NCBI GenBank assembly: GCA_965226495.1
Contig: OZ245365.1
Span: forward strand, 3,200,001-3,264,000
Direction of reading: 5' to 3'
Source: Candidatus Marinacidobacterales bacterium
Lineage (GTDB): Bacteria; Acidobacteriota; Vicinamibacteria; Marinacidobacterales; DATDRI01
Length of the DNA: 64,000 nt
Both the position numbers and the translations under genes were made by a program. The notes beneath the pieces were generated by a model. It was given only the letters and a program-made list of their open reading frames with translations, did not search any database and had not been told where the DNA came from. Below are positions 13,690 through 64,000 of the stretch, piece after piece; the first letter of the stretch is position 1, and each line of letters opens with the position of its first letter.

Positions 13690-16600
13690 TCGTTGGTCCC
13701 GTGCGCCTGGCCTTCGGCCCCAGACATCCAGAGTAATTTCCGCAGATCCGACACCGAGGGGACGCCCCATCGAGCGATGAGGACTTGTCCCGTTGCGTCG
13801 GTAACGAACGTCGCGGGAACGGCGTCCGCACGAAGCTCAGCGAGTATGGTTTCATTCACTTTGTCGATCTCGCTCTTCGCGATTCCCGTTAAGAGCTCGT
13901 AGGGTGGTGTGTACTCCGCGAGCCAACTCTGCAGCATGTCTCTAGAGTCTTCGCCATCGACCGGTACCGAGTACATAGCGAGCTCATCTTCTCCGAAGGC
14001 CTCCCGCAGCCTGTGGAACTCAGGTAGCTCGGTAACACACGCCGTGCACCAAGTCGCCATCGTTGTGACGAGCGTAAGGCCTCGCTTCGACTGTTGACTC
14101 TCGCCTTCGTGTAGCACAACGAGGTTACTCGCCCGTTCCTTCGTCGGAAGTAAGCGGGTCTTCCAGAAGTCTGGCGACGAGGCTCGAGTCATCAGAGCGC
14201 TTGGAGCCTTCGCGTACGGCTCTAGGGTAAAGGGCTTCCCTGTCGGCGAATCGGATGGATTCTCGTAAAGGGTGACCAGCATGCCGGCGGGGATCTCGTT
14301 CGACTTCTGCTTCTTTCCCGAGAGCCACCGAACCCAAAGCGACGCTAGGCTGTCGTGCTCTCCAATGCCAATAATCATCGTGGAGCTGTGCTGTGCAAGA
14401 TAGCCGCTTTCCGGTTGGAGCTCTCGGTAAATCAGCTCTCCTTCGCCGAGGTCCAGTTCCACCGCGGTCCCGAAAGCATCTCTGGCACTCCAATCTTTGG
14501 ACGGCTTCGGCGTCTTGTTACCTCCCACAAACCGCAAAGCGATGAAGCCGCCGCGAGTCTTGTCGCCAATGCCATTCCTGAGCAAGCGCAGGCGTGGCGC
14601 TCCGGGGCTACCGAGCGCCACGTCCAACCAGCCGTCCCGATCATAGTCGAGGAGCGCAAAGGACCGACCGTCCCCCGGATCATCGAGACCCGTAACGCCA
14701 GAGAGATCCTCGAATTGATGTCCCGGAAACCCGCCCAGGAACAGGTGGTTCCGCTCGGCTCCGCTCCAAGGAATTCCGGAAAAGATCGATGCGTTCGTAC
14801 TCTGGATCGTCTCCACCATCGTTGCCCACCGGCTTTTGCTGCCCTCCTGACCGGAACCATCGAGATCGCGTGCGACCGCACGCCAAAAGGTACTTCAACT
14901 ATCGCCTATCGTCGCGACTTCGGGTGGCATGCTCATCATGCTAGCGGGCACGTAGATGTCGAGGTAGCCGTCGTTGTTAAGATCCGCAAAACCTCCGCCC
15001 CATCCAAAATCCGCCGCCTCCACCTGCGGAGACGGTGGCTCCATCCCCGAGACCTTGTAGAATCCATCGGGCCCGTTGCGGATCAAAGAATTGCCTCTCG
15101 CCGACTGGGCCACCATTGCGCTCGACTGCATCTGCTCGGCGATACGCATACCCGCTTTGCTGAACATGTTCGTCGTGTACATGTCCGCACGGCCGTCGTT
15201 GTCGTAGTCGCCCCATGAACCACCCATACCGAATCCGATCTCGCCCGTATGTTCGTTCGAAATGTCTGTGAACACGCCATTCCCATCGTTTCTTCTGAGC
15301 TCGTTCGGCCCTAGCTCATTGACAACGTACAAATCCATATCCCCATCGCGGTCGATATCCGACCACGCAGTGGCTAGCGTATTGAAGCTAGACTTCGCAG
15401 CGTCGTTGGGATCGGTCCGTCGGAATCGTCCGTCGCCCAGGTTCTCGAGAAGCCAATTGGAGGGACCCGGGTTTCCGGAGATCGGGTGCGCTTCGTCGGA
15501 ACGCATTCGACGAAATATTGCCTTCGCCTCTTCGGGGTCTAGCCAGGGGATTTCATCGGCCCCCGTCTCGCCGCTTGCCTTCGCTCGCTCGTTCGCGGCC
15601 TGCATGTACTGGGTGTAGGGACCAGTGTAAGCTCCTAGGTAGACGTCGAGCAATCCGTCGTTGTTGTAATCCGTCACGCTGATCGGCAAGACCCAGCTCG
15701 GAAGCCCTTCTTCGACGAGATCGCTCGCATCGACGAAACGTCCGTGCTCGTTTCGCAAGTAGCGCGTTCCATTCTCACGATTGTAAAAGCTCAAGAACAC
15801 ATCGCTATCATCGTCGTTGTCGAAGTCAGCAAAAGTCGCCGAGTGAACGTTGGCCAGATCTAGGCCCAAGCTCTCTGAGATCTCCTCGAACGTTCCGTCC
15901 CCACGATTTCTGAAAAAGAGTGCGGGCGCATCGTAGCCTGCGAAGTAGAAGTCGTCGAAACCATCGCGGTCGATGTCTACGACGGACGCTTGGTTCGCGT
16001 GGCCCCATGGGGATGTCCCGTTCTCCAACTGATCTCGGACCATGTCGAGAACATCCTCCAACTCCATTTGGCCGGTTCGAATGCCCAGAACCACATTGAC
16101 GAGCATCTCGTCTCGGTTCGAATGAGCCAGACGTGCTCGGTCGTCGCCCGCAAACGCGAGGTCGCCCACATCGCTGAAGAGTGGAGCCTCTGCCTGAGTT
16201 ACGGTGAAGTCTTTCGTCGCAAGCTTCGTCACGCGCCAAGTACCCCTGTCGTCATCTGCCTTCCCTGGCTCGTGCCTCCATCGGATGCTCAGCTTCCCTT
16301 TCACCGAACCCACTTTTCCCGAGGGGAATTGGGCCAAGCCCTTGAACCCCGTCTCTGTCTCATACTGCGATTTGTCGGTGCCCACGAAGCGACCGCGAAC
16401 ATTGTAGAAGTTGAAGTGATGAAAGAAGTCGACCGTCTCGAGGAAGCTCGTCCAGAGCGTCAAGTCCGCCGCTTCGACACGCGTTCGTGGGGCCGAGAGC
16501 GGCCATCGCCATCGATCCAAGCCGAGGCCGAGAATGTCCCCTTCTTCTTTACTTGGGCTGGCTCCCAGATCCACCACATCTAGCCTTGGCTCCAGAGCGG

Positions 16601-50978: not shown

Positions 50979-53636
50979 ATGCAATTGAAGCACGGTCACA
51001 AGCTCGGAAGCTTCGAGATCATCCGGCTCTTAGGTAAGGGCGGGATGGGAGAGGTCTACGAGGCAAGGGACGTACGCCTTGATCGAGCTGTGGCGATCAA
51101 GGTCTTGCCTGCGGAGCTCTCCGGCGACGCGGAGCGACGCGATCGCTTCAAGCGCGAAGCCAAAGCCGTCGCCAGCTTGAACCATTCTCATATCTGCACG
51201 CTTCACGACGTCGGCGACCATGACGGTATCCACTTCCTGGTCATGGAGCTCATCGAAGGCGAGACGCTCGCCGAGCGGCTCGAAAGAGGCGCTCTTCCGC
51301 TCGACCAGGCGCTTCGCTCCGCGACGGAGATGGCCGACGCCCTCGACAAGGCCCACCGCAAGGGGATCGTTCATCGAGACCTGAAACCGGGAAACGTCAT
51401 GCTCACCAAGGCGGGCGTGAAGTTACTCGACTTCGGCTTGGCCAAGCTGACGCAGTCGGGGGCCGAGGGTCACTCGCCTCTTTCCGAGCTCCCAACGCAG
51501 CAGAAGGCGCTGACTGCCGACGGTGCCATCATAGGCACCTTCCAGTACATGGCACCGGAGCAACTAGAGGGAAAGGAAGTCGACACACGGACTGATGTGT
51601 TCGCGTTCGGTGTCACCCTTTACGAGATGCTGGCCGGTAAGCGTCCGTTCGAGGGAAAGAGTGCTGCGAGTCTCATCGCCGCCATCATCGAGCGGGAGCC
51701 GCGCCCTCTAAAAGAGATTGACGACGCGACACCGGCAGCACTGTCGCAATTGATCGAAGGATGTTTGGCAAAAGACCCCGAGGATCGCTGGCAAAGCATG
51801 GCGGATGTGACACGCCAGCTTCGATGGATCGAAACCGGGCCCGACATCGACGCCACCTCGAAGCAGACCCAGAAAATGAGCGTCCTGCCATACGCCCTGC
51901 TCACGGGGGCAGCGGTCATCGTGGCGGCTCTCGCCGGGCTTTGGATCGGCCGGTCCGACGAGGTACCCAGATCGCCGAGTCGGTTCGTCATCCCCTTTCC
52001 CGCTGGGGACGAACCTTCGACTGCAGAGCGGTCGATCGCACTTTCCCCCGACGGCACACTCCTCGTCTACGCGGCTATCCGGGACGGAATGTCCCGCCTC
52101 TTCGTGCGCCCCCTGGATCGCCTCGACGCCACACCGATTCCCGGCACCGAGGGCGCTCGGGGTCCTTTCTTTTCTCCCGACGGGAAGTGGGTGGCTTTCT
52201 TTACTGGCAATCAGCTCAAGAAGGTCAATCTCGAGGGCGGGCCACCCATCGCCATCGCTGACGCGATCCTCTCCCAAGGGGGCGGCGGCATTTGGAGTCC
52301 TCTCGGAGAGATTCTGTTCTCTACTGGGATAGGCTCGGGTTTGCTTCGGGTCTCCGAGACTGGCGGAGTCGCCGAAGTCCTGACGACTCCGGAAAAGGAT
52401 GAAGGGAAGCACGACAATCCTCACATTCTCCCTGACAATCAACACGTTCTCTTCACGGTCGGGGTTGGCGGTGAATCCATGCGCGTCGCGCTTCTGTCAT
52501 TAGAGACCCAAGAATGGAAGGCTCTCGATCTCGGTAATGTTCCTCATGCCACCTTTGCACCTTCCGGACACCTCGTCTTTGCCCGTCCGGGTGGCCTGTA
52601 CGCGGCACCCTTCGATGTGGAGAAGCGCGCGCTAACTGGGCCTCCGGTCCCGGTCCTCCAAAACGTTGCAATAGATTTCGGTTCAGGAAGCGCCCACTAT
52701 TCGATTTCGAAGAACGGGACGCTGGCCTTCGTACCCTCGCGCGCTGAGAATCGTTTGGTGTGGGTCAATCGTCGGGGAGACTCAAGACCGCTCCTCGAAG
52801 AACCGCGCATGTATCTTACACCCCGTCTTTCCCCTGATGGACGCCGTCTGGCGGTGGTCGTGCGTGACGTCAGCAGCGGCCGCCGCGACATCTGGGTGAA
52901 GGATTTGACCCGAGACACGTTCACACGGTTGACCCAGCCCAACCTGGAGTTTGCTCATGAGCCAGCCTGGTCGCCCGACGGTACGCAGATCGCGTTTGCG
53001 GGTCGTAAGCTAGGCTCAGACCTCAACCGGAACGTCTTCGTTGCCTTTGTAGACGGTACGGGAGAACCTCGGCGACTCACGGCAAACGCCGTGACAACGG
53101 TTCCGACATCCTGGTCGCGCGATGGCAATCTGATTTTTTTCCAGCAACAGTCCGACGTTGGAGTTCTTCGAGTCGACGAGCCGGAGTCAGAAAAGATGTT
53201 GCTCGACAGCCCTCCCAACGAAATAGAAGCGACCCTTTCTCCAAACGGCCGGTGGCTCGCGTACACGTCGAACGAAAGTGGAAGATATGAAGTCTACGTA
53301 ACGGACTTCCCTGCGCTCGACCAGCGCTGGCAGATATCGGTGAACGGAGGCAAAGAAGCTCTGTGGGCGGCCAACGGTCGCGAGCTCTTCTACCGCAGTG
53401 GGGACCGGATGATGGTTGTCCAGATCACCTCCGGCAGTGGCTTCACCCCCTCGAAGCCAGCGATTCTCTTCGAGGGCCCCTACGCGGTCGATCCCGTAGG
53501 CCAGGACGCAGTCAACTACGATGTCACCGCGGATGGCCAGGAGTTTGTTATGGTCGAAGAGGACCGCCTCGCGCCCGGCGTGGTTGTCGTACTGAACTGG
53601 ACCGAAGAGCTCAAGCGCCTCGTCCCTATTGAGTGA
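50979..53636 (+). CDS. Ser/Thr kinase with TolB-like (PD40) beta-propeller
   Basis: LGKGGMGEVY, HRDLKPGN, DFG, GTFQYMAPEQ; SPDG repeats; paralog of 29045-31711. Confidence 0.93.
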   Translation: MQLKHGHKLGSFEIIRLLGKGGMGEVYEARDVRLDRAVAIKVLPAELSGDAERRDRFKREAKAVASLNHSHICTLHDVGDHDGIHFLVMELIEGETLAERLERGALPLDQALRSATEMADALDKAHRKGIVHRDLKPGNVMLTKAGVKLLDFGLAKLTQSGAEGHSPLSELPTQQKALTADGAIIGTFQYMAPEQLEGKEVDTRTDVFAFGVTLYEMLAGKRPFEGKSAASLIAAIIEREPRPLKEIDDATPAALSQLIEGCLAKDPEDRWQSMADVTRQLRWIETGPDIDATSKQTQKMSVLPYALLTGAAVIVAALAGLWIGRSDEVPRSPSRFVIPFPAGDEPSTAERSIALSPDGTLLVYAAIRDGMSRLFVRPLDRLDATPIPGTEGARGPFFSPDGKWVAFFTGNQLKKVNLEGGPPIAIADAILSQGGGGIWSPLGEILFSTGIGSGLLRVSETGGVAEVLTTPEKDEGKHDNPHILPDNQHVLFTVGVGGESMRVALLSLETQEWKALDLGNVPHATFAPSGHLVFARPGGLYAAPFDVEKRALTGPPVPVLQNVAIDFGSGSAHYSISKNGTLAFVPSRAENRLVWVNRRGDSRPLLEEPRMYLTPRLSPDGRRLAVVVRDVSSGRRDIWVKDLTRDTFTRLTQPNLEFAHEPAWSPDGTQIAFAGRKLGSDLNRNVFVAFVDGTGEPRRLTANAVTTVPTSWSRDGNLIFFQQQSDVGVLRVDEPESEKMLLDSPPNEIEATLSPNGRWLAYTSNESGRYEVYVTDFPALDQRWQISVNGGKEALWAANGRELFYRSGDRMMVVQITSGSGFTPSKPAILFEGPYAVDPVGQDAVNYDVTADGQEFVMVEEDRLAPGVVVVLNWTEELKRLVPIE

Positions 53637-53808
53637 TCCGGATCACACTTCCTGAAAATTCGATTTTCTTCCATAATAGATTATGTTAGGTTCACTGTAC
53701 GCTGTGACGGGAGTCGAAGACTCCGAGTGCGCCGTTCGCAGCTCCTACGAAGAACTGGTCTACCCCAGACGCGCCGCACTCGTGGTCGGACCGAAGCCCT
53801 TTTAAGTC

Positions 53809-54408
53809 ATGAGAACTCTTCTCGACGTAATCCAGGAGTGGGCCGCACTCAACGACGCCAAGACGATCGCAGGCGGCACGTTGCCCCCGCCGGGTGAGAA
53901 ACGCTGGGAAGAGCTGAGGTCGTTTTATGAATTTGTCATGGCGCAAGAAGGGCTTTGCGAAAAGCCAGCGAGTCGTTTCTCTGCCGACGACATCCGCAGC
54001 ACTGTGACGACGCGGGATCGCCTTCGTGTGAACACCGACATGGAAATCGTGGTCATCGAGAACGGGACCGTCGAGCGCGCCCAAGTAGGCAACCTGAGCT
54101 GCGGAGGTGTGCTTCTTCTATGCGACACACCCTTCGATAAAGGTAAGGGAGTGACCGTCCAACTCGCCAGCGTCACGCGGGGCGCGGGAGTTCTGCCCGC
54201 CGAGAGTGAGATTGTGTGGCTCGTCGATCAAGGGGGTTCCGAACTGACCTTCCGCTACAAGATGGGGGCCCGTTTCCTCGATCTGGGACACACCGAGCGC
54301 AACAGCCTGGACTACTTCGTGGTGGACAGCCTCGAGAACAAGCTGCTCTCGCTACGCCGTGACGCCTTGGACCCGGAGTTCCTTCTCCGAGAACAAATCG
54401 TACTGTAG
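53809..54408 (+). CDS. PilZ-domain protein
   Basis: RxxxR-like 'TRDRLRV' followed by NLSCGG; 'MGARF'. Confidence 0.7.
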   Translation: MRTLLDVIQEWAALNDAKTIAGGTLPPPGEKRWEELRSFYEFVMAQEGLCEKPASRFSADDIRSTVTTRDRLRVNTDMEIVVIENGTVERAQVGNLSCGGVLLLCDTPFDKGKGVTVQLASVTRGAGVLPAESEIVWLVDQGGSELTFRYKMGARFLDLGHTERNSLDYFVVDSLENKLLSLRRDALDPEFLLREQIVL

Positions 54409-54453
54409 AACTTCCCGCTGGACGTCGAGTCCTTACCTGCTACACTCCTCGCG

Positions 54454-54921
54454 ATGTCGCCTTTCTTGGGAGGAAAAGGGCTCGCCTGGGCAAAACAGAA
54501 CCTGCCACGGATACCGCTTCTGGTAAACCTCGCTTGGGGTCTCTTCCGGGATCCGAGGGTCCCGGTTTCCCTCAAGGCAGTCTTATTGGGCGTGCTCGCC
54601 TATGTGGCAAGCCCTCTGGACCTCATCCCGGACTTCATCCCAGTCCTCGGGCGGGTCGACGATCTCCTGGTCCTGCTCGCGGCCATGGAAATGTTCACCC
54701 GATTGGCTCCACCCGAAGTCGTGGCGGAGATCGAAGAGAAGTACCGGGAAGGTCATGGCCCCCTCCGCACGGACCTGGAAGCTGCCGAAAAACACCTGGG
54801 GCGGCTATGGACATGGGCGGTCCCGAAGGTCGAGCACCTAGCCCAGAAATACAAGAAGCGCGTGGACAACGAGGCATTCGTCCAAGACATCAAGGAAAAG
54901 ACCCCTCCCACACCCGCCTAA
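54454..54921 (+). CDS. DUF1232 (YkvA) family protein
   Basis: DPRVP...AYVASPLDLIPDFIPVLGRVDD. Confidence 0.92.
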   Translation: MSPFLGGKGLAWAKQNLPRIPLLVNLAWGLFRDPRVPVSLKAVLLGVLAYVASPLDLIPDFIPVLGRVDDLLVLLAAMEMFTRLAPPEVVAEIEEKYREGHGPLRTDLEAAEKHLGRLWTWAVPKVEHLAQKYKKRVDNEAFVQDIKEKTPPTPA

Positions 54922-54988
54922 TCCCTTGCCTCGCCTCCGGGGCCGCGTTACAATCCTCGCCGATTTGTCCCCTTCGAGAATGTTCAGA

Positions 54989-56353
54989 ATGGCTAGCAAA
55001 GAGCCGGGAAGCGCGAGCCTTCGCTTCTGTTACGCGTCCATCTTTTGGCTGATTGTGCCCGGCGTTTTCGGCTTGATCCTAGCCACTTTCTTGTATGCCC
55101 CGGCACTGGCCGATCACCTCCCGCTTTCCATCAAACCGTATTTGAGCTTCGGTCGCCTGAGACCGGCTCACGTGAACCTCGCGATCTTCGGTTGGCTCTC
55201 GCAGGCCTATTACGCCGGCATTCTCTTCATTCTCCCTCGCCTCCTTCGCACCGAGCTTTACAGCGAGCGCCTCGCCCACGTGAACTGGTGGCTTTGGAAT
55301 CTCATGGTCGTCGCCACCCTCATCACTCTTCCTATGGGACACACGCAAGGCCGCGAGTACGCGGAGATGATATGGCCGCTCGATCTGCTGTTCATTCTCA
55401 ACATCGTGCTGTTGGCGATCAACATCTGGGGAACCGTTGCACGTCGTCGCGAGCCCAAGATCTACGTGAGCGTCTGGAACTTCATGGCGGCAACGATGGT
55501 AATGGTCCCAATCTACGCGGTCGGCAACAAGATTTGGGATCCCTCCGGTGCGTACTACGGCATGAACGACAACATCGTGAACTACTTCTATGTTCACAAT
55601 CTCTTCAACGCCTGGTTCACGACCGCCGGTATCGGGCTGGCCTTGTACCTTCTACCGAAGCTCACGGGCAAGCCGCTCTACAGCCACCGGCTCGGCCTCT
55701 GGGGACTCTGGAGCGTCTGGACCGGACAACATCACCAACTCTACAGCCCGGCACCGGATTGGCTGGAGTACCTCACGATCGTCTTCAGCATCCTGGCAGC
55801 CGTGCCGACGACGGCGTTCATGGTCAACTTCTTCATGACCATGCGCACCCGCTGGCACGTCGCCGCTCAAGACGTCGCGCTCCGTTTCTTTGCAACCGGA
55901 GCGATCTTCTGGGGACTCACCTGCGTGCAAGGCATCTCCCACTCGTTCCGAACCTTTTCGATGGTCGTGCATTTTACAAACTGGGTCGTGGGACACTCGC
56001 ACCTCGCCTTTGTGGCGTCCTACAGTTTTTGGGCCTTCGCACTCATCTACCTGATCGTGCCAACGCTCACCGGCCGCAACATCTATAGCAAGAAACTGAT
56101 GGAGTGGCACTATTGGCTGACCACGCTAGGCATGTTGATCTTCATGATCTCGATGTGGGTGGCGGGGCTCATCCAAGGACAAAACTGGTCGTCCTATATG
56201 ATCCCGTTTCTGCAAACCGTGATATCGATGAAGCCTTATTTCGGGGCCCGCCTGATTGGGGGCGCGATCGCCGGCATCGGGATCGCTTGCTTCGCATGGA
56301 ATATCTGGCGAACGGCGCACAGCGACACCGCCGTCACAGAGGGTAGACAATGA
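54989..56353 (+). CDS. ccoN: Divergent cbb3-type (C-family-like) heme-copper oxidoreductase subunit I
   Basis: FGRLRPAH, REYAE, YVHN, WTGQHH and NWVVGHSH; about 12 TMs; active-site substitutions noted in findings. Confidence 0.85.
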   Translation: MASKEPGSASLRFCYASIFWLIVPGVFGLILATFLYAPALADHLPLSIKPYLSFGRLRPAHVNLAIFGWLSQAYYAGILFILPRLLRTELYSERLAHVNWWLWNLMVVATLITLPMGHTQGREYAEMIWPLDLLFILNIVLLAINIWGTVARRREPKIYVSVWNFMAATMVMVPIYAVGNKIWDPSGAYYGMNDNIVNYFYVHNLFNAWFTTAGIGLALYLLPKLTGKPLYSHRLGLWGLWSVWTGQHHQLYSPAPDWLEYLTIVFSILAAVPTTAFMVNFFMTMRTRWHVAAQDVALRFFATGAIFWGLTCVQGISHSFRTFSMVVHFTNWVVGHSHLAFVASYSFWAFALIYLIVPTLTGRNIYSKKLMEWHYWLTTLGMLIFMISMWVAGLIQGQNWSSYMIPFLQTVISMKPYFGARLIGGAIAGIGIACFAWNIWRTAHSDTAVTEGRQ

Positions 56354-56835
56354 GACCTAACCTGGTCTACCTTGTCGGCGGCTCCCTGGTCAGCTTGTTG
56401 CTCGGGATTATCGTCACCATTATTATCCCTGCGCAGGAACCGATCGGGCCTTCGCAGCTGGCCAAGTCCTATTCCGAAAAGGAATTGAGGGGGCGTGATA
56501 TCTATTTACGTGAGGGGTGCCACTACTGCCATACCCAGCAGGTGCGCGAGCCCGAGTCGGATCGCGGGATGGTGCGCCAGCGCGGCGACATCGGGCCCGA
56601 ATCGGTGCCGGGAGACTTCTATTATCAGTCTCCGGTTTTCTGGGGCACTCTCCGCCAGGGCATGGACCTGGCCCATGTCGCCTCGCGGAAAGGGATCGGA
56701 GATAACGTGGGCTGGCACGAGCTTCACTTTAGAAACCCTCGAGCGGTGTCGCCGGGAACGGTCATGCCGTCCTACGACTATCTGTCCGCGGAAGAGATTC
56801 AGGCGCTCACCGCATATATGTTGACGCTGAGATAA
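56350..56835 (+). CDS. ccoO: cbb3 subunit II-like monoheme cytochrome c
   Basis: GRDIYLREGCHYCHTQQVR, WGTLRQGMDL, PGTVMPSY; ATGA overlap with subunit I. Confidence 0.9.
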   Translation: MRPNLVYLVGGSLVSLLLGIIVTIIIPAQEPIGPSQLAKSYSEKELRGRDIYLREGCHYCHTQQVREPESDRGMVRQRGDIGPESVPGDFYYQSPVFWGTLRQGMDLAHVASRKGIGDNVGWHELHFRNPRAVSPGTVMPSYDYLSAEEIQALTAYMLTLR

Positions 56836-56839
56836 GTCT

Positions 56840-56992
56840 ATGGTCTTCCCCGCAACCTGGCTGGTGCTAGCGACAGTGGCTATCATCTTGGTGCTCTTCG
56901 GCCTCGGCTACTACTGGGCGCGCAGTAACGGGCAGTTGGACGACATCGAGGCGGCGAAGTACACCATGCTCGAAGACGACGAGTCTGAATGA
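56840..56992 (+). CDS. ccoS: CcoS-like maturation protein (50 aa, absent from the ORF track)
   Basis: My translation: MVFPATWLVLATVAIILVLFGLGYYWARSNGQLDDIEAAKYTMLEDDESE, with the CcoS signature WAxxxGQxDD. Confidence 0.85.
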   Translation: MVFPATWLVLATVAIILVLFGLGYYWARSNGQLDDIEAAKYTMLEDDESE

Positions 56993-57243
56993 TGAGCTCT
57001 GAAGGAGCACGGGAAGTGCCGCCGGGTCACGACGATTTCGGGGGTGAGATCCTGGTGGCCAACGGCAAACCGCCCCGCTGGGTCACGAAACTACCTTATG
57101 TCGCGATGGTCTGCGCACTCGGGTATTACGCGATGGTCGGGGCCGCCGACCCGGTCAACCTAGCGTTCGCGTCACTGTTCGTAATTTGGTTTATCTACAC
57201 TCCGATCGCCCAGAAGAAGGGCTGGTTCTTTATTCCGATGTGA
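56989..57243 (+). CDS. Small membrane protein of the oxidase operon
   Basis: ATGA overlap with ccoS; two hydrophobic segments; 'HDDFGGEILVANGKPPRW' resembles the N-terminal motif of CcoP, without a heme domain. Confidence 0.65.
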   Translation: MMSSEGAREVPPGHDDFGGEILVANGKPPRWVTKLPYVAMVCALGYYAMVGAADPVNLAFASLFVIWFIYTPIAQKKGWFFIPM

Positions 57244-57348
57244 CATGCCGAGGGGAGGTGTCATCGATCGACTAAGTTGAGCGACGTTCCTTAGTTTGAC
57301 CCATCACTTTTCACTTTCACATACCTATTGAAACTGGAGGGCAACAAA

Positions 57349-57783
57349 ATGGCGGACAGAGCCGAACAAGCAAACAAGTACATGGAAGATAAGATGTTTT
57401 TCACCCCCCGCATGTTCAAAGTAACCAACACGCTGGCGCCGGAAGTCGGGGAGCGTTTCGCCGATTTCTACGAGTCGGTGTGGGCCGACGGCAACCTGTC
57501 CCGCAAGATCAAAGAGCTGATGTTCGTCTCCATTGGCGTGGCCTATATGTCGCCGCGGTGCATCATCCACGTTCAGCCCGCCATCAAGGCCGGTGCGACG
57601 GACGGCGAGATCTTCGAGGCGGTGTCAGTCGGTATGCTGGCAGCCGGGTTCGTGCCTGGTGGACCAGGCATTCCCTACGCCTTCGAGTATGCCGCCAAGA
57701 CGTTGGACATTGCAGCCAAGATCCGCAAGGGCGAAGACTTCGAGTATCTCCCTGGCCCCAAGTTCGACAAGGGCGTCTACTAA
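57349..57783 (+). CDS. Carboxymuconolactone decarboxylase/AhpD-like protein (single Cys)
   Basis: DGNLSRKIKELM...SPRCIIH...AIKAGATDGEIFEA; GGAGG RBS before ATG 57349. Confidence 0.88.
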   Translation: MADRAEQANKYMEDKMFFTPRMFKVTNTLAPEVGERFADFYESVWADGNLSRKIKELMFVSIGVAYMSPRCIIHVQPAIKAGATDGEIFEAVSVGMLAAGFVPGGPGIPYAFEYAAKTLDIAAKIRKGEDFEYLPGPKFDKGVY

Positions 57784-57799
57784 GAACAACCGTCTCTGC

Positions 57800-57845
57800 G
57801 CAGACGGGGGTCGACAAACCTAGGGCTCCCGTCTGCCTTCTCTTC
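57800..57845 (+). terminator. Stem-loop with pyrimidine tail after the CMD gene
   Basis: GCAGACGGG...CCCGTCTGC followed by cttctcttct. Confidence 0.45.
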
Positions 57846-57861
57846 TAGGACAGAACAACAC

Positions 57862-58680
57862 ATGAGTGTGCAGGGGTTCCCGAATGACCGTCTGCTAGTG
57901 GGCACGGCATGGCTGGCCGACCAATTGAACGATGCCGATTTGCGCTTGGTGGAAGTGACTGCGCCCGGCGCCGGATACAAGTTCGGGCATGTCGCAGGCG
58001 CCGTCTATCTGAATGTCGACGATCTGTTGACGGGAAAAGCCACCGGAGTCGAGCGAACGGTGGGCCCCATCGAAGAAGTGGCCGTCGTCCTCGGCGGACT
58101 GGGCCTTTCCCGAGACAAGAAAATCGTCGTTTACGACGAGTGCGACGAACGCATCGGGGGAACCCGAGCCTCACAACTTTTTTGGCTCTTGGAGTACTTG
58201 GGCTGTGAGCAGGTGCACTTGCTGGAAGGCGGCATCGAACGTTGGCTCGCCGAAAACCGCCCCACGACGGGCGAGACGCCCGACGTTCAAAAGGCCACGT
58301 TTACTCCCGCGATTCGTGAAGAGCGTCTCGCGACCGCGGATTGGATCGTGGAGCACCTGGAGAATTCAGATGTATCGGTCATAGACGCGCGAGCACCCGA
58401 GGAATACGAGGACGGCCATATCCCAGGGGCCGCGAATCGGTCCTGGGACAAGACCTTAACGCGAAAAGCCTACCAAGCGTTTCGATCCGCCGAAGAGCTT
58501 AGAGGCGAGTTCGCCGAGTTGGGTGCAACCGAAGACAAAGAGGTTGTCGCCTACTGCATGACGGGCGCGCGCTCCTCTCACATCTACCTGACGCTACGTC
58601 TATTGGGTTACACTCGGGTCCGGAACTATGACGCGTCTTGGACGGAATGGGGGTCCAGACGGGACTTGCCCAAGGCCTGA
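57862..58680 (+). CDS. Tandem-domain rhodanese / sulfurtransferase
   Basis: GHVAGA, LEGGIERW, IDAR, GHIPGA, active site YCMTGARS, YDASWTEW. Confidence 0.93.
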   Translation: MSVQGFPNDRLLVGTAWLADQLNDADLRLVEVTAPGAGYKFGHVAGAVYLNVDDLLTGKATGVERTVGPIEEVAVVLGGLGLSRDKKIVVYDECDERIGGTRASQLFWLLEYLGCEQVHLLEGGIERWLAENRPTTGETPDVQKATFTPAIREERLATADWIVEHLENSDVSVIDARAPEEYEDGHIPGAANRSWDKTLTRKAYQAFRSAEELRGEFAELGATEDKEVVAYCMTGARSSHIYLTLRLLGYTRVRNYDASWTEWGSRRDLPKA

Positions 58681-58686
58681 AACAGC

Positions 58687-58713
58687 CCTGACAGGCCTGA
58701 CAGGCCTGACAGG
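58687..58713. repeat. 3 x 9-bp tandem repeat CCTGACAGG
   Basis: cctgacagg-cctgacagg-cctgacagg; each unit is a near-palindrome. Confidence 0.8.
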
Positions 58714-58769
58714 GTGGACGCGTAACCGCGTTCCGAGGCCGGTAATTTCATTTTAGGAGGATTAGGAAA

Positions 58770-59942
58770 ATGGCAACCAGTCAACTACCGCTGTTCCCAG
58801 TTACCGTCGTGGGCAGCTGGCCAAGACCTCAGTATCTCTTGGACGCGCTCAGGAAGCGCCAAAAGGGGCAGTTGAGCTTCGAAGAGTTTCAGAAAGTCGC
58901 CGACAAAGCGGTGTTGGAGCAGCTACGCTACCAAGACGAGGCGGGTGTCGACATCGTGAGCGATGGCGAGCAACGCCGAGACAATTTCTACTCGTTCGTC
59001 GTGGAGAAGTTGGATGGCGTAGAGTTGATGACCTTGGCGGATCTCATGGATCACGTCGAGGACAAGGCGGGATTCGACTCCATCCTCCGCAGCATGGACG
59101 CTCCGGCCTTCGGTATCAAGAATCCCACTGTGACCGGAAAGATAAAACCCAAGATGTCGCTGGCGGTCGACGAGTACGAGTTCTTGAAGCAGCACACCGA
59201 CAAGCCCATCAAGATCCCTCTACCCGGCCCTTACATTCTAATCCGATCCATGTGGGTCAAGGGCGTCTCTGACAAGTTCTATCCCACTCAGGAAGATCTG
59301 GCCGTGGATATCGTCAAGATTCTGCGCGACGAGCTCATCGCCCTTCGTGATGCGGGCGTCGACTTCGTGCAATTCGACGAGCCGGTCCTTACCGACGTCG
59401 CTTTCAACCCAGCGGTGAAGGAACGTACTTTCATGTGCGCCTCGATGGCGGCGTCCTCAGGCGATCCGACTAAAGAGCTCCTGCTTGCAACGCGCATGAT
59501 GAACAGTATCGTCGACGGCGTCGATGGAATCCGCACCGGTGTTCACGTGTGCCGTGGCAACTGGAGCCGCAAGGACGAGGTGTTGCTCAAGGGAAGCTAT
59601 GAGCCGCTCGTCCCGACCATGATGGGAATGCATCTCGATCAGCTCGTCCTCGAGTACGCGACACCGCGCGCCGGCGAGCTGGCGGCCTTCTCACATCATC
59701 CCAAGGAAAAAGAGATCGGTTTGGGCGTCGTAAATCCTCGGACTGATGAGATGGAATCGCCGGACTCGGTAGTCGAACGGGTGAACGAAGCGCTGCAGTA
59801 CTTCAAACCCGAACAAATCTACCTCAACCCCGATTGCGGTTTTGGAACTTTCGCCGAGCGGCCCATGAATCCTGCCGACATCGCGGGCAAGAAACTCGCC
59901 ATTATCGGTGAGGCCGCCAAGAAGCTTCGCGCGAATCATTAA
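58770..59942 (+). CDS. Cobalamin-independent methionine synthase II-like (single-barrel core) Zn enzyme
   Basis: VVGSWPRP, SDGEQRR, VQFDEP; Zn ligands HVC(RGN), LEY and PDCGF; lacks the N-terminal barrel of full MetE. Confidence 0.9.
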   Translation: MATSQLPLFPVTVVGSWPRPQYLLDALRKRQKGQLSFEEFQKVADKAVLEQLRYQDEAGVDIVSDGEQRRDNFYSFVVEKLDGVELMTLADLMDHVEDKAGFDSILRSMDAPAFGIKNPTVTGKIKPKMSLAVDEYEFLKQHTDKPIKIPLPGPYILIRSMWVKGVSDKFYPTQEDLAVDIVKILRDELIALRDAGVDFVQFDEPVLTDVAFNPAVKERTFMCASMAASSGDPTKELLLATRMMNSIVDGVDGIRTGVHVCRGNWSRKDEVLLKGSYEPLVPTMMGMHLDQLVLEYATPRAGELAAFSHHPKEKEIGLGVVNPRTDEMESPDSVVERVNEALQYFKPEQIYLNPDCGFGTFAERPMNPADIAGKKLAIIGEAAKKLRANH

Positions 59943-59960
59943 ACTCTTTCGAGAATAGTC

Positions 59961-60488
59961 ATGTCTGAATCGAGCAAGATCAACGGACTGGATATAGAGG
60001 AGACGCGGGAGGCCATCAAGACCGTAAGCGCCGCGCCGGGGGCGTCGAATGCCCCCAAGAAATCACGGTGCAAATGGCTCACCGGTCTCAAATTCAAGAC
60101 CTACGTGCGGAACCACGTCTTTCTCGTGGACGAGCCGGCGCACCTCGCGGGCGAGGATGAAAGCCCTAACTCCATGGAGTACGTTCTGGGCGCCTATGCC
60201 GCTTGCCTCGCCACGGGGTTTGTTCTCAATGCCAGCCAAAAAGCGATCGAGATCCACAACCTCGAAGTGGTCGTAGACTCGACCCAAAACAACGTGTTCA
60301 CGTTTTTGGGTTTGGGCGGGGAAGGGCACGCCGGGTTCGACACCATTAATGCCAAGCTCTTCGTTCAGGCCGACGCGGACGAGGCCACGCTCAAGGACGT
60401 TTGGACCCAGACGGTCGACACCTCCCCGGTGCACAACTCTCTGGCTAGGCCCGTGACCATCAAACCCGACATTGAGATCGTCCCGTAA
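59961..60488 (+). CDS. OsmC-like protein (single conserved Cys)
   Basis: DEPAHLAGEDESPNSMEYVLGAYAACL; second Cys position is Ser (TSPVHNSL). Confidence 0.88.
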   Translation: MSESSKINGLDIEETREAIKTVSAAPGASNAPKKSRCKWLTGLKFKTYVRNHVFLVDEPAHLAGEDESPNSMEYVLGAYAACLATGFVLNASQKAIEIHNLEVVVDSTQNNVFTFLGLGGEGHAGFDTINAKLFVQADADEATLKDVWTQTVDTSPVHNSLARPVTIKPDIEIVP

Positions 60489-60599
60489 GACCCAAGAAGA
60501 GCTAGGCGTCTTCTTCCTTCTTCGCGCTGGCCCGGAGCACTTTTGGCACCAAGTTGCCACCAGAGCAGAGCGGACGCTGTCCCTCTCGAGATCGCCGAT

Positions 60600-60629
60600 T
60601 TGAAAAGTCGAACGGCAGACTCCTATAAT
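60600..60629 (+). promoter_or_regulatory. Sigma-70-like promoter (candidate cassette promoter Pc)
   Basis: TTGAAA-N18-TATAAT pointing into the cassette array. Confidence 0.5.
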
Positions 60630-60759
60630 CCGCCGAACGGCCACGCGGGTATATTTGTATATCCAGACCCACCAGACGCGGCATATCCCGGGGCAGGAAA
60701 CAACGGATCATGCCCAACACGAATAGTCTGAGTTACATGAACGAAGACACCCACGCTGC

Positions 60760-60828
60760 GATATCCAATACCTGGACCGGCTTGGATGTGCTATCGAATT
60801 ATCCAGATCTAGATACTTACTGTTCGGC
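60760..60828 (+). mobile_element. Candidate attI-like site / start of the first gene cassette
   Basis: GTTCGGCGG (60822-60830) is the exact reverse complement of CCGCCGAAC opening attC1; TATCCA direct repeats at 60660, 60762 and 60800. Confidence 0.5.
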
Positions 60829-60840
60829 GGGCATTGCTTG

Positions 60841-61230
60841 ATGTACAAGACACTCAGCTTTCAGTATGCCGGGGCGCTAGATTGGGAGTATGACGAGACT
60901 GGGGAGCCGGTAACTCCGGGCGGCAGGGCGCTCACGGAGAGGATTGCTGCCTCTTTGACGTGCGAGACGGTACGGTCCGCGGCGGTCGAACAACACGAGT
61001 ACTACGGATGGGGTTTTACCAGCGAACTCGGACGAGATTCCTTCTACAACGTGCTTAATGCGGTGGACCCAGACGTCTTCTTCACGGTCAAAATGGAATG
61101 GTATCTAGCGAAGAAAACACTGTTTCGCTCCCCAGAGATAGCTTTGAAGCGATATTGCCAGATTCTGCGCGATGCTGTTTCCTCTCTCGACGGAGTCAGC
61201 GAGGTGAAGTGGGAGGAACAACGCCGTTGA
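60841..61230 (+). CDS. Hypothetical protein, gene cassette 1
   Basis: ORF starts 19 bp after the core GTT and ends 12 bp before attC1. Confidence 0.75.
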   Translation: MYKTLSFQYAGALDWEYDETGEPVTPGGRALTERIAASLTCETVRSAAVEQHEYYGWGFTSELGRDSFYNVLNAVDPDVFFTVKMEWYLAKKTLFRSPEIALKRYCQILRDAVSSLDGVSEVKWEEQRR

Positions 61231-61242
61231 TTTGCGGGAGCC

Positions 61243-61360
61243 GCCGAACAATGCGTTGGAGTCGGACGGCGCCGAGGCTTCTTGGGCGCGTGAGATACTG
61301 CCGCAGGGGGGCGGTGTCGGCGGCGCTCCAGCCGCGCCGCCACTCAACGCACTGTTATAC
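61243..61360 (+). mobile_element. Integron attC site 1
   Basis: R'' GCCGAAC; L'' GTTGGAGT pairs with L' ACTCAAC with one extrahelical G; inner GGCGC/GCGCC stem; R' GTTATAC; 118 bp. Confidence 0.85.
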
Positions 61361-61594
61361 AGGCGATTTCAACGGAACCATCAAAGCTTTGCTGAGAATC
61401 CCGCCGGGGCCCAGATAAGTGGCCGTCGAGCGAAAGGACGCTCGAGGTATTTCCTAGTGCACAATGGGCACCGATCGTGCCATCAGCGCGTTAACTCCAT
61501 GTCTCACGACGTGATACGACAGCCCGACTGATACACAATCAGTAGGTGTGCAGCGTCGAGCTCCCGTGAATGTCGCTTACCGAATCGGGCGGCC

Positions 61595-63120
61595 TTAATC
61601 CTGGCCTGTCGAGAACGACAGCAACTCCTCCGGTTTTCTGGGAACGCCTCCCTTGATCACCCACTCGATGGCTCGAGCGTTCCGGACGTCCTCTAGCGGA
61701 TTGGCGCTCAAGACGACTAGATCTGCTAGCTTACCCGGCTCGATGCTGCCAATTTCATTGTCCACTCCCAAGGCGATAGCTCCCCCGTAGGTTGCCGCCA
61801 CCAGGACCTCGGCCGGGCTCAGACCCGCCTCCTGGAGGAACTGCATTTCGAGATGCGAGCCGATGCCGACCGGACCTGCGTCGGATCCGAGAGCAACGGT
61901 GACACCTCGGGCCTGAGCCTCGCGCGTGTTCTCTTGCAGGTGCTCCCACAACGTGGCTAGGGCCGGAGGCAGTCCGGGGAATCGAGAGGTCGCGCCGGAC
62001 GCAGCGTTCGCTCTTTGCTCGTACCGCGCCAGCTCACTGTCGGAGAGTCTCCTTTTGAAGTTCTCATCCGATAGGATGCGTTTCGCGTAGGCTTGCTGGT
62101 CTCCATTAGCAAGAATCACCAGGTGCGTCGGTGTCCAGACGATGTTTCGCACGCGCATCTCTTCCCACGTCGGAGGAATCAGCAGCTTAACCGAGCGCGG
62201 GGAACCGTACGGAGATTTGACAGGAAAATTAAGACTTGACCGTCCGGGGAATCGAGTCGCGCCGGACCAGCGTTCGCTCTTTTCGTACCGCGCCAGCTCC
62301 ATGTTCTCATCAGGAGTTTCGCGCTTGCTGGCTCCGGAATCACCAAGAACACGCGCATCTCTTCCCAGAGTTTCTCGTCCACCTCCGAGTCCATTGTTCC
62401 ATGCATCAAGGCGTTGGCTCCGGCAAGAACGGCCTCTCGAGTGTCGGCGAGCTGCGTGACATGAACATAGACCCTCATGTCCAATGTTCTAGCTTCATCG
62501 ACCAGGGCGGAAAAGACCTCTGCTCGAAGCCGCGGCACCTTCTTCGAACCCATCCAGAGGACACCGTCGTCCTGAATGATCTTGATCTGCCGGAATCCCT
62601 GGTCCTTGCATTTCCTAACCATCCGTCGGGCAGCGTCGGCCGTGTGCGGTTTGAAGAGCTCCAGTCCCGGCATGACATTCTGCGGAAACCCGCCGCTGAA
62701 AAACGGGCTCATGTGAAGGCGGGGAGAGAGAGTCTTGGGCGATTGCGATCGCGCTTCCAGCTGGCGGGGATCGTCCGGGAGAGACCCGGGCATCAAGTGG
62801 ATGGTGGTGAATCCCATGGCCAAATACGTTTGAAGCGCCTCCTCGGAGCTGGAGTGCGTGTGGACATCCACAAATCCCGGGACGACCCACTTTTGCTTCC
62901 CATCGATGACCCGCGCGCCCTCCGGTATCGTAATGCTCCCCTCACTGCCGACGGCGAGCACGCGGTCGCCTTCGAGGACGATGACCGCATCAGCCTGCAG
63001 CACCCCCGTCTTCCCATCGATCAAGTTCGTGGGCGAGATGACCACTCTTCGCGCCTGGCCGATCGCCAGGATAGCGGAAGCATGCGCGAGGAATAACACA
63101 AGAGCAAGGACCCTTTTCAT
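61595..63120 (-). pseudogene. Exported amidohydrolase family protein in cassette 2, interrupted by a 200-bp degenerate duplication
   Basis: VPGFVDVHTH, IKI, VYVH, MHG, GSDAG and GSIEPGKLADLVVL; WEEMRV occurs in both ORF halves; 18-bp direct repeat at 62150 and 62350. Confidence 0.8.
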
Positions 63121-63290
63121 GCAGCACCTTCCTAGTTTCATGCGGTGGCGCCGACCGCCCGGCCGACTCCGACCACCGCTCGTTCTAGCCTGGAATCTAG
63201 TCGTTCGACAGGTGGGATTCAAACGGCTTGGGTGTGCGGGATTGCGCCACCTCAGGGGAAGGCAAAGCTGGCAATGGTGAAGCCAGAGCT

Positions 63291-63396
63291 GTATAACAGC
63301 CGCTGGAGGCGACGGCCGACTTTTCCTGATTCAACGACCGAATCAGCTTTACGCTATCTTCAACGAAGTCGGCCGCAGCTCAGCTTTTCGTTAGGC
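63291..63396 (+). mobile_element. Integron attC site 2
   Basis: R'' GTATAAC; GCTGGAG pairs with CTCAGC with an extra G; GGCCGACTT/AAGTCGGCC stem; R' GTTAGGC; 106 bp. CTGTATAAC complements GTTATACAG at 61354. Confidence 0.85.
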
Positions 63397-63405
63397 AGTC
63401 GAAGA

Positions 63406-63816
63406 ATGAATGAGGGTCGCACGGTAGCTTGGGTTGGAACCGCGATCGTCGTCGTGCACGGGCTAGTCAACGCAGCACACGCGACGGCTCATTCGGAACT
63501 AGGCGTCGAAATGTCGAAGTGGCAGGAAACCTTTATTCTGGTCGTCATTGGTCTGAGTCCCCTTGCAGCCGCGGTGCTTCTTTGGACGGCCCACGCACGG
63601 TTAGGCGCGGTCATCCTTGCCGGCGCGATGGCGGCGGCATTCGTGTTCGGAGTCTACTATCACTACGTGGCTGTTTCGCCGGACCATGTGGGGCATTTGC
63701 CGCCGGGGGATGCACGTGGCTTGTTTCGAGCAAGTGCTTTGTTTGTTGCTGTTACTCAAGCTCTGGGCACTGTTGTGGGCCTATGGGGTATCCGAACGCT
63801 TCGAGGTGCATCATAG
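63406..63816 (+). CDS. Four-TM His-containing membrane protein, gene cassette 3
   Basis: ATG 16 bp after the G of GTTAGGC; 136 aa; 'HGLVNAAHATAH' and 'YYHYVAVSPDHV'. Confidence 0.75.
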   Translation: MNEGRTVAWVGTAIVVVHGLVNAAHATAHSELGVEMSKWQETFILVVIGLSPLAAAVLLWTAHARLGAVILAGAMAAAFVFGVYYHYVAVSPDHVGHLPPGDARGLFRASALFVAVTQALGTVVGLWGIRTLRGAS

Positions 63817-63840
63817 ATGCTTGTCGTGGCCGAGGAGGTC

Positions 63841-64000
63841 TGTAGTGTCCTGAGTCTTTGGTTACACACTGAGTCCTGTTTTCTGTCTAAGGCGTTCATA
63901 CGGGGTCTGGCCGTCTAAGCCTCCATGAGGTCGATGGTAGTTATAGTACTTCTCCCACTCGCTCAGTTTTGCATTGAATAGGTGAATGTCGTCGCTGACC
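63841..64000 (-). mobile_element. Right end of an IS481-like insertion sequence (transposase C-terminus, truncated by the window)
   Basis: Minus strand reads ...DDIHLFNAKLSEWEKYYNYHRPHGGLDGQTPYERLRQKTGLSV* (stop 63862-63864), then a terminus ending ...CACTACA (TGT end at 63841). Confidence 0.8.

Follow-up and report, generated by a model that had tools for sequence, protein, structure and literature searches.

What do four genes for apparent thiol and sulfur handling do directly behind a haem-copper oxidase that lacks the cross-link tyrosine (Tyr)? This question is raised by a 64-kb stretch of DNA (hereafter the window) from a Candidatus Marinacidobacterales bacterium (Acidobacteriota; GCA_965226495.1, contig OZ245365.1, positions 3,200,001 to 3,264,000), in which genes for a CcoN/CcoO-type membrane enzyme are followed by genes for an AhpD-like protein of the CMD family with a single cysteine (1-Cys CMD), a rhodanese, a single-barrel zinc enzyme of the MetE superfamily (hereafter MetE-like) and an OsmC-fold protein. 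Comparison with other loci shows that the Tyr-less haem-copper enzyme belongs to a conserved modular cluster together with the 1-Cys CMD, a sulfur carrier and OsmC-fold proteins, a cluster that often also includes the MetE-like enzyme, the bacterial pathway of coenzyme M (CoM) biosynthesis, or both. The oxidase and the CMD form the core, and the sulfur carrier is either the rhodanese or a TusA-DsrE fusion; further modules, not always present, are the MetE-like/OsmC pair and, according to lineage, either the CoM biosynthesis (xcb) genes or a DinB/mycothiol-transferase-like gene. We tentatively read the four genes as the central part of a string of about 14 genes, dealing with thiol and sulfur handling within an undescribed oxidase/CoM system, a reading to which we give somewhat less than an even chance.

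A search anchored on the MetE-like protein recovered 36 genome loci with a family member at least 50% identical (L numbers designate the compared loci, and G000 is the window's own genome). Nine of the ten loci with a protein at least 68% identical also encode CcoN, CcoO and CMD, the tenth being a contig of 5.9 kb. The gene order is oxidase-CMD-rhodanese-MetE-OsmC in Acidobacteria and MetE-OsmC-oxidase-CMD in SAR202-type Dehalococcoidia; two CMD genes and an ABC transporter lie in between in L009. Insertions are also seen in two SAR202-type genomes, with genes for an SfiI-like restriction enzyme and an N4/N6 methyltransferase located between OsmC and ccoN (L015:9721-11467 and L022:9758-11459).

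When the oxidase was used as the anchor, Tyr-less CcoN was detected in 8 of 401 Dehalococcoidia genomes. The CMD gene adjoins the oxidase in all six Dehalococcoidia loci that were fetched, and the MetE-like and OsmC genes do so in three; two of the other three genomes carry a protein of the same MetE-like subclade on another contig, and none was found in G545. This subclade (at least 66% identity) is present in nine Dehalococcoidia genomes, six of them oxidase-positive. If a partial copy at a contig edge in G420 is included, it occurs in 7 of 8 oxidase-positive versus 3 of 393 oxidase-negative genomes, both counts apparently referring to the same Dehalococcoidia sample, with overlapping handle numbers. 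The oxidase is found in none of the 17 Dehalococcoidia genomes that encode MetE-like relatives of 55–61% identity.

In metagenomes, 66 loci encode a CcoN at least 46% identical to that of the window. The CMD gene follows the oxidase in 25 of the 31 loci with at least 2.5 kb of downstream sequence, the MetE-like gene adjoins the oxidase in 6 of 17 well-flanked loci, and a rhodanese gene is present in six loci, only in the order CMD-Rhd-MetE-OsmC. The MetE-like and OsmC genes correspond to a separate two-gene module, which adjoins the oxidase in about one third to half of the oxidase-anchored loci; an OsmC-like gene is present in 30 of the 36 loci holding a MetE-like family member. CMD is the regular cytoplasmic partner of the Tyr-less enzyme, and OsmC the constant neighbour of the MetE-like family. 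An earlier note on this DNA had presented the four genes as one block tied to the Tyr-less ccoN. The linkage recurs in other genomes and phyla, in rearranged orders, but the four genes are not a fixed set, the rhodanese and the MetE-like/OsmC pair being optional.

Some oxidase loci have additional neighbours. In L119, which has no CMD, the Tyr-less oxidase is accompanied downstream by a pyridine-nucleotide disulfide oxidoreductase and a rubrerythrin (L119:11700-13695), and extra OsmC copies are present in L104, L106, L128, L129, L148 and L149; these peroxide-defence neighbours fit a role in stress defence and do not prove it. Another sulfur amino-acid context is seen in one lineage (L148:11811-18204), where oxidase and CMD are followed by genes for an aminotransferase, a luciferase-like monooxygenase, a PLP decarboxylase, an OsmC fusion and a PLP enzyme of Cys/Met metabolism.

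The link to CoM came from oxidase loci without a MetE-like gene (L114, L128 and L129), in which CMD is followed by genes whose products are described in Pfam as DUF7714, ComA and two Lyase_1 proteins. The corresponding NCBIfam names are XcbA, phosphosulfolactate synthase, XcbC and XcbD, then XcbE, i.e., the bacterial CoM pathway XcbA-E as outlined in PMC9457059. An apparently full xcb set is present in the window's genome at L179:7883-14083 (G000:C1:3267883-3274083), with xcbA located 7.4 kb past OsmC and 3.9 kb past the end of the window, outside the DNA covered by the earlier note. XcbA (NF052538, 443 bits for a cut-off of 150), ComA (TIGR03849, 297 for 280) and XcbD (NF052536, 650 for 600) exceed their cut-offs, and XcbC (565 for 575) and XcbE (400 for 450) fall just under them. 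These proteins are 45–51% identical to the characterised XcbB-E of Xanthobacter, and the genes are, at the level of sequence, orthologous to those encoding the characterised enzymes. A gene for a 137-aa monohaem cytochrome c is located between xcbD and xcbE.

In five loci (L007, L008, L097, L098 and L144), the string is unbroken, xcbA starting 6–78 nt after OsmC, and the order in the nearest relatives is ccoN*-ccoO-ccoS-like-small TM-CMD-rhodanese-MetE-like-OsmC-xcbA-xcbB(comA)-xcbC-xcbD-cytochrome c-xcbE (about 14 genes; the asterisk marks the Tyr-less form). In the window's genome, OsmC and xcbA are separated by orf130, a split amidohydrolase gene and a segment (L179:3862-7485, G000:C1:3263862-3267485) with an IS481-like transposase (integrase), an IS256 transposase and an HNH gene (IscB-like, a weak match); the relatives have no such gap, which we read as the interruption of an ancestral gene string. 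The xcb genes also occur next to the oxidase in other arrangements: xcbA-D follow CMD in the SAR202-type loci L082, L083, L135 and L136, and xcb genes adjoin the oxidase in 7 of the 17 well-flanked metagenome loci. Moreover, XcbA is encoded in only 4 of the 401 Dehalococcoidia genomes, corresponding to three of the eight oxidase-positive and one of the 393 oxidase-negative genomes. In SAR202 loci without xcb genes (L010 at 12808-14120, L015, L016, L022, L024, L133 and L134), CMD is followed by a gene for a 228–247-aa protein with no Pfam or NCBIfam match, and then by one for a DinB/mycothiol-transferase-like protein.

A sulfur carrier is the other recurrent element. TusA and DsrE proteins are donors to sulfur-oxidising systems. 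A TusA-DsrE fusion (Pfam-confirmed in L114 and L129, and identified in the other loci by tblastn at 46–90% identity) is encoded directly upstream of ccoN in 24 of the 66 metagenome loci. These loci represent a third metagenomic group, a sister lineage whose CcoN is 66–81% identical to that of the window, and we read the rhodanese of the window's lineage as taking the place of this carrier. The MetE-like family is also associated with such carriers away from the oxidase. In Bacillales, it is encoded in TusA-DsrE-TusA::OsmC-MetE-like operons; the four loci scanned all contain DsrE and TusA::OsmC, and two contain a separate TusA. The Bacillales operons share with the window the MetE-like family (52–55% identity), its invariant extra Cys and a Ser-Pro OsmC partner, whereas no haem-copper enzyme, CMD, rhodanese or xcb gene was seen in these loci. 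A metagenome protein of 702 aa (P0138) even fuses a TusA-like domain (G-D-L-D-C-G-G-G) to a MetE-like one, its C-terminal 190 residues looking out-of-frame or frameshifted; the search for longer fused MetE-like forms gave three proteins, the two others being uninformative. The window's genome itself encodes a MetE-like paralogue (58% identity) in the company of an Rv1679-like acyl-CoA dehydrogenase, an Rv1680-like SBP-like protein and an OsmC; titles and opening lines of abstracts on Rv1679/Rv1680 contained nothing on function.

The membrane enzyme is one of only two haem-copper enzymes encoded by the window's genome (6.3 Mb), the other being an A-family oxidase. With TIGR00780, the CcoN-like protein scores 297.8 bits for a cut-off of 583. 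We aligned it and 15 close relatives with 30 canonical acidobacterial CcoN: in all 16 members of the clade, a deletion of five residues takes out the segment with the cbb3 cross-link Tyr. All three His ligands remain, and four residues past the first CuB His there is an Asn. The deleted Tyr and the low TIGR00780 score rule out a cbb3-type cytochrome c oxidase. SAR202 homologues are annotated as cbb3 subunit I. The enzyme resembles cbb3, cNOR and N2Ored enzymes in its C-family subunits CcoN and CcoO with a CcoS-like ORF, and NO-reductase-type families in the missing Tyr; it differs from cNOR, which has a Glu at the position of the Asn, and from cbb3 in that dihaem CcoP is missing from the cluster. 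According to Murali et al. (2024; PMC11214002), haem-copper families without the cross-link Tyr do not reduce O2. The same source describes a putative 'N2Ored' family within the C branch, and its tables class one Vicinamibacteria genome as N2Ored and a SAR202 genome, which by its name seems to be that behind L016, as C-family.

Among a sample of 400 other Acidobacteriota, no CcoN is more than 41% identical to that of the window, and the oxidase cluster was therefore probably acquired by transfer. This raises an alternative explanation, in which the modules came together on a transferable island and have since been co-inherited, as neighbours without shared function. The absence of the clade from the 400 genomes, when copies 50–59% identical exist in Dehalococcoidia, speaks for such an island, as do the IS elements and restriction-modification genes inserted in several loci. 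However, the modules remain adjacent in at least five different gene orders, the restriction-modification insertion in L015 and L022 did not disperse them, and the oxidase co-occurs strongly, at the genome level, with the MetE-like subclade and with XcbA. We consider an island of functionally unrelated neighbours very improbable.

The MetE-like protein contains the catalytic core of the MetE superfamily, with its Zn ligands and homocysteine-binding Ser, Glu and Asp. Among 44 aligned sequences of the family, the Zn-site residues H259-x-C261, E295 and C356 are invariant, as are S16, E67 and D203, which are of the homocysteine-binding type in MetE and MesD (mapped via the 3RPD alignment and PMC7857596, with an inferred index offset of 3). 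Another cysteine, C223, which the earlier note did not mention, is likewise invariant and lies in an R-T-F-M-C insertion specific to the family; a Cys of 3RPD stands opposite C223 in the HMMER alignment. With 390 aa and scores of 24.5 for PF08267 (cut-off 27), 98 for TIGR01371 (930) and 101 for NF003556 (541), the protein is not a full-length MetE, and all 10 NCBIfam methionine-synthase models remain below their cut-offs. The best solved relative is MesD (3RPD, E 9.2e-28, about 28% identity). Core-MetE families are mutually less than 30% identical, which we used as the criterion for family-level identity, and from its residues and scores we assign the protein to a core-MetE family that has a third invariant Cys and is as yet uncharacterised.

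The window's genome encodes MetH (1713 bits) and no full-length MetE. Among the 26 Dehalococcoidia genomes with the MetE-like family, 22 encode a MetE N-domain and three of the other four MetH, G558 having neither. Because conventional synthases coexist with it, the MetE-like protein is not a housekeeping methionine synthase, an identity also ruled out by the sub-cut-off scores; the earlier note was right to set it apart from ordinary methionine synthases. It could nevertheless be a stand-by one. In this explanation, the MetE-like/OsmC pair would methylate homocysteine without cobalamin or folate, as a fifth 'core' family comparable to MesD/MesX, kept next to an NO/N2O-handling enzyme since these gases and oxidants disable MetH and MetE, and CMD, OsmC and rhodanese would only protect or repair thiols. 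The conserved Zn ligands and three homocysteine-binding residues, the position of MesD as nearest solved relative and the reliance of the window's genome on MetH all agree with it. A switch from MetH to MetE is known in Paracoccus, and E. coli MetE is sensitive to oxidation. Inactivation of MetH by N2O, as reported in PMC13059711, points in the same direction. However, MetE, split MetE or MetH is already encoded in 25 of these 26 Dehalococcoidia genomes, 22 of which have a cobalamin-independent form, so that a back-up is not obviously needed. A search with Rfam at gathering thresholds, covering the window and eight Bacillales loci, gave two distant T-boxes as its only matches and no riboswitch of the SAM, cobalamin or any other type. 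Among five genomes, NirK exceeded its cut-off in none and NosZ (propeller) in one, G564. Finally, a stand-by synthase leaves the TusA/DsrE, Rv1679/Rv1680 and xcb neighbours unexplained, and we consider it unlikely.

The resemblance to MesD/MesX (PMC7857596; 3RPD) includes the single barrel, the Zn ligands, the homocysteine-binding Ser/Glu/Asp and a second, adjacent protein, MesD being dependent on its partner with an oxidant involved. The differences are the identity of about 28%, the OsmC fold of the partner in place of MesX, and the coexistence with conventional methionine synthases; the protein is placed outside the MesD/MesX family. PF08908 (MesX, DUF1852) had no match in the window's genome, a result that is uninformative since the control also matched nowhere.

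The presence of xcb genes suggests another possibility, in which the MetE-like enzyme does the job of epoxyalkane:CoM transferase (EaCoMT) or of a methyl:CoM transferase, joining xcb-made CoM to an electrophile. On pXAUT01 of Xanthobacter (CP000782.1), xcb genes do travel with a MetE-family Zn enzyme, the EaCoMT XecA (Xaut_4865), and the MetE-like protein is the best match to EaCoMT in the window's genome. The identity to XecA is nevertheless only 24% (89 bits), XecA has Asn and Arg at the positions of the Ser and Glu and is devoid of the R-T-F-M-C insertion with C223, and tblastn of the window's genome gave no match to an alkene monooxygenase hydroxylase and only a 26% identical best match to 2-ketopropyl-CoM carboxylase (2-KPCC). 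These differences rule out an EaCoMT orthologue. Since the homocysteine-type Ser, Glu and Asp are kept and EaCoMT differs at the first two of these positions, the Zn-bound thiol is more likely a homocysteine-type amino acid than CoM. Moreover, the family is also present in G001 and G564, in which no xcb genes were found, and we regard a CoM alkyltransferase as quite improbable. Compared with the epoxide pathway of Xanthobacter autotrophicus Py2, the cluster thus shares a MetE-family Zn enzyme encoded with xcbB-C-D-E and differs in the genes for alkene oxidation and carboxylation, in the residues of the Zn enzyme, and in its partners, here a haem-copper enzyme, CMD, OsmC and a sulfur carrier. 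The organosulfur theme proposed in the earlier note holds in that sulfur carriers (rhodanese, TusA-DsrE) recur and the gene string runs into CoM biosynthesis; its comparison with EaCoMT is undermined by the low identity and the homocysteine-type residues.

A distant MetE-like paralogue (about 29% identity) in the window's genome has an in-frame TGA at the Cys of H-x-C (G-F-H-L-*-R-G-N; L003, G000:C1:1240222-1240224, minus strand), which may be a candidate selenocysteine zinc ligand. This genome contains two tRNA-Sec genes detected by ARAGORN (G000:C1:173953-174050 and 176351-176447, 2.3 kb apart) and a SelB over the cut-off.

The other proteins of the block have altered cysteine motifs. CMD contains S-P-R-C-I-I-H, and S-P-x-C-x-x-H is invariant in 12 of 12 homologues; in 3bey and 5dik, the position of this Ser is occupied by the first Cys, and S-P-R-C in place of C-x-x-C rules out AhpD itself. 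A search of the ESM Atlas with CMD returned only generic AhpD-like clusters. In OsmC, the first Cys is kept and the second is replaced by Ser (T-S-P-V versus the typical C-P). This Ser-Pro is present in all 18 aligned OsmC of the cluster type, two downstream Bacillales copies retaining C-P, so that an OsmC/Ohr peroxiredoxin with two Cys is rejected; the score with NF041052 is 57.9 for a cut-off of 95. Both proteins thus resemble AhpD and OsmC/Ohr thiol peroxidases in their folds and in one of the two catalytic Cys, and each is without the other (S-x-x-C and Ser-Pro, respectively), which makes the usual intramolecular disulfide cycle impossible. The rhodanese is of the tandem-domain type, with two PF00581 stretches and the catalytic loop Y-C-M-T-G-A-R-S in the C-terminal domain (Y-C-[MVA]-T-G-A-R-S-S-H in 4 of 4 acidobacterial copies). 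The catalytic loop of SseA is C-G-[ST]-G-V-T. This different loop and a score of 124.6 (cut-off 250) with the 3-mercaptopyruvate sulfurtransferase model NF008557 (3-MST) rule out SseA. The rhodanese gene also shows a strain-variable indel: a DNA contig of run X2 is short of 12 nt at 58142, corresponding to a four-residue insertion, C-D-E-R, in the N-domain that is also missing from the relatives L006-L008.

The earlier note had combined these features into a relay, in which sulfur, as persulfide or S-nitrosothiol, travels through the single-Cys carriers and the rhodanese to the Zn enzyme, with the haem-copper enzyme as electron acceptor. Sulfur carriers do recur next to the oxidase, and CMD and OsmC are both 1-Cys proteins. 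However, haem-copper enzymes draw their electrons from periplasmic cytochrome c through CcoO, none of the encoded proteins is known to link cytoplasmic thiols to cytochrome c by electron transfer, and the first OsmC Cys is replaced by Asp in three aligned relatives (L014, L023 and L041). Such a relay has little chance of being correct.

The predicted complex of the MetE-like protein with OsmC has an ipSAE of 0.53, versus 0.00 for the best of three controls, and was given a verdict of weak support by the tool. Of 80 solved complexes, 58 pass the same mark, as do 2 of 110 mismatched pairs; values of at most 0.60 account for just 7 of the passing solved complexes and for both passing mismatches. 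The runs agree in at least 92% of contacts, with a partner pLDDT of at least 89.

Taken as one oxidase/CoM system, the cluster would make and use a low-molecular-weight thiol. The rhodanese could supply sulfur, e.g., by converting thiosulfate into sulfite for XcbB and persulfide. The 1-Cys CMD and OsmC might pass reducing equivalents or mixed disulfides with the low-molecular-weight thiol, and may also serve XcbA as the thiol reductant that it needs. The MetE-like enzyme, aided by Cys223 and OsmC, would catalyse an alkyl or methyl transfer by activating, at its Zn site, the thiol of a homocysteine-type amino acid. As for the membrane enzyme, in which canonical O2 reduction should be impossible, it would probably reduce NO or a related small oxidant, the whole cluster possibly acting under nitrosative or oxidative conditions. 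We regard as possible, though unlikely, the broader proposal that oxidase, 1-Cys AhpD, sulfur carrier, MetE-like/OsmC and CoM biosynthesis make up one undescribed physiological system of aerobic marine and subsurface bacteria, with CoM as the thiol reserved for a respiratory branch that oxidises sulfur or defends against NO/oxidants, or as the methyl/alkyl carrier of a new Zn-transferase reaction.

Several observations weigh against an oxidase/CoM system. The expression evidence consists of low-depth contigs from one RNA library that cover only the part from the 84-aa ORF to CMD. Each module except the oxidase is dispensable in some loci: CMD is missing in six metagenome loci (L099, L100, L119, L123, L126 and L157), and the MetE-like/OsmC pair and the xcb genes are missing from 11 and 10, respectively, of the 17 well-flanked ones. 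In G001 and G564, which encode both the oxidase and the MetE-like protein, neither ComA nor XcbA was found anywhere in the genome, and in the window's genome IS elements cut the xcb genes off from the block. Members of the MetE-like family are found without an accompanying oxidase in Bacillales, Verrucomicrobiota and Rubrobacter, as is the paralogue of the window's genome, so that neither the oxidase nor CoM can be a requirement of the family's chemistry. The homocysteine-type residues argue against CoM as the Zn-bound thiol. Finally, horizontal transfer may inflate the apparent independence of the loci, and some of the synteny may be inherited, not selected.

To our knowledge, CoM has been found in bacteria only in alkene and epoxide degraders. 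Here, an apparently complete bacterial CoM pathway is tied to an orphan haem-copper family in at least three lineages (marine Acidobacteriota, SAR202-type Dehalococcoidia and the third metagenomic group), as well as to an uncharacterised branch of the methionine-synthase superfamily. Because the cross-link Tyr is absent, the members of this haem-copper family cannot be ordinary oxygen reductases. The use of CoM in bacteria is described as poorly understood (10.1101/2021.03.22.436540). A literature search, judged partly by titles, gave no paper joining the Tyr-less oxidase or cbb3, the MetE-like family and CoM genes, including for SAR202. The cluster provides handles on the roles of Tyr-less C-family enzymes, of the core-MetE family with the extra Cys, and of CoM in bacteria that are neither methanogenic nor alkene-degrading. 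If the genes do form one system, CoM would have a third biological role beyond methanogenesis and epoxide metabolism, and a function would be assigned to the orphan haem-copper family.

The features of the locus are listed below. The four genes behind the oxidase are indeed co-directional and closely spaced, as the earlier note had described them, with gaps of 105 nt between the 84-aa ORF and CMD and then 78, 89 and 18 nt along CMD-rhodanese-MetE-like-OsmC. The motifs listed in the earlier note (SxxC in CMD, the lost second Cys of OsmC, CMTGAR and HxC...E...C) are present and conserved among homologues, and the gene families and motifs of the block are far beyond chance.

Features of the oxidase-linked cluster in the window (positions in the 64-kb stretch)
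Feature	Position	Strand	Evidence and remarks
CcoN-like subunit I	54926..56353	+	PF00115 COX1, E 1.5e-82; ATG at 54989 gives the 454-aa form of the public collection
CcoO-like monohaem cytochrome c subunit	56350..56835	+	PF02433 FixO, E 5.2e-29; 4-nt overlap with ccoN
FixS/CcoS-like ORF, 50 aa	56840..56992	+	PF03597, E 6.2e-7, 29.5 bits for a cut-off of 23.1; kept in relatives
84-aa membrane protein	56989..57243	+	Kept after CcoS-like ORF in relatives; start overlaps preceding stop (ATGA)
1-Cys AhpD/CMD-like protein	57349..57783 (ORF from 57328)	+	PF02627, E 3.8e-9
Two-domain rhodanese	57862..58680	+	PF00581, E 3.3e-35, two stretches
MetE-like single-barrel Zn enzyme, 390 aa	58770..59942	+	PF01717 Meth_synt_2, E 1.4e-32
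OsmC-fold protein	59961..60488	+	PF02566, E 7.5e-16
Start of the interruption of about 7.4 kb between OsmC and xcbA-E	60489..64000	.	orf130, split amidohydrolase (minus strand), membrane ORF

The overlap of ccoN with ccoO, like that of the ccoS-like gene with the 84-aa ORF, is of the ATGA type. The 84-aa membrane protein shows a faint likeness to the FixP N-terminus (PF14715, E 0.078, below the cut-off), and the CMD start codon is preceded by GGAGG 8–9 nt ahead of its ATG. In one metatranscriptome (contigs), near-identical pieces were found only at 57043-57196, 57219-57375 and 57496-57778, spanning the intergenic region between the 84-aa ORF and CMD, with DNA carry-over being possible. A promoter and terminator scan of 53500-61500 detected no more sites than in shuffled sequences and none separating the genes, and the fold of the sequence that follows OsmC is no better than that of shuffled versions (z -0.13). 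The rest of the window encodes kinases, a TonB receptor and other proteins, with nothing related to the cluster.

Two minor features of the DNA can be added. In the intergenic region between the rhodanese and MetE-like genes, a 9-bp unit, CCTGACAGG, is present in three tandem head-to-tail copies (58687-58713), and a strong AGGAGG ribosome-binding site is located just downstream of the repeats, before the MetE-like gene. Beyond OsmC, on the minus strand, the amidohydrolase gene (61595-63222) is split into two overlapping ORFs (62179-63222 and 61595-62302), likely corresponding to a frameshift or a pseudogene.

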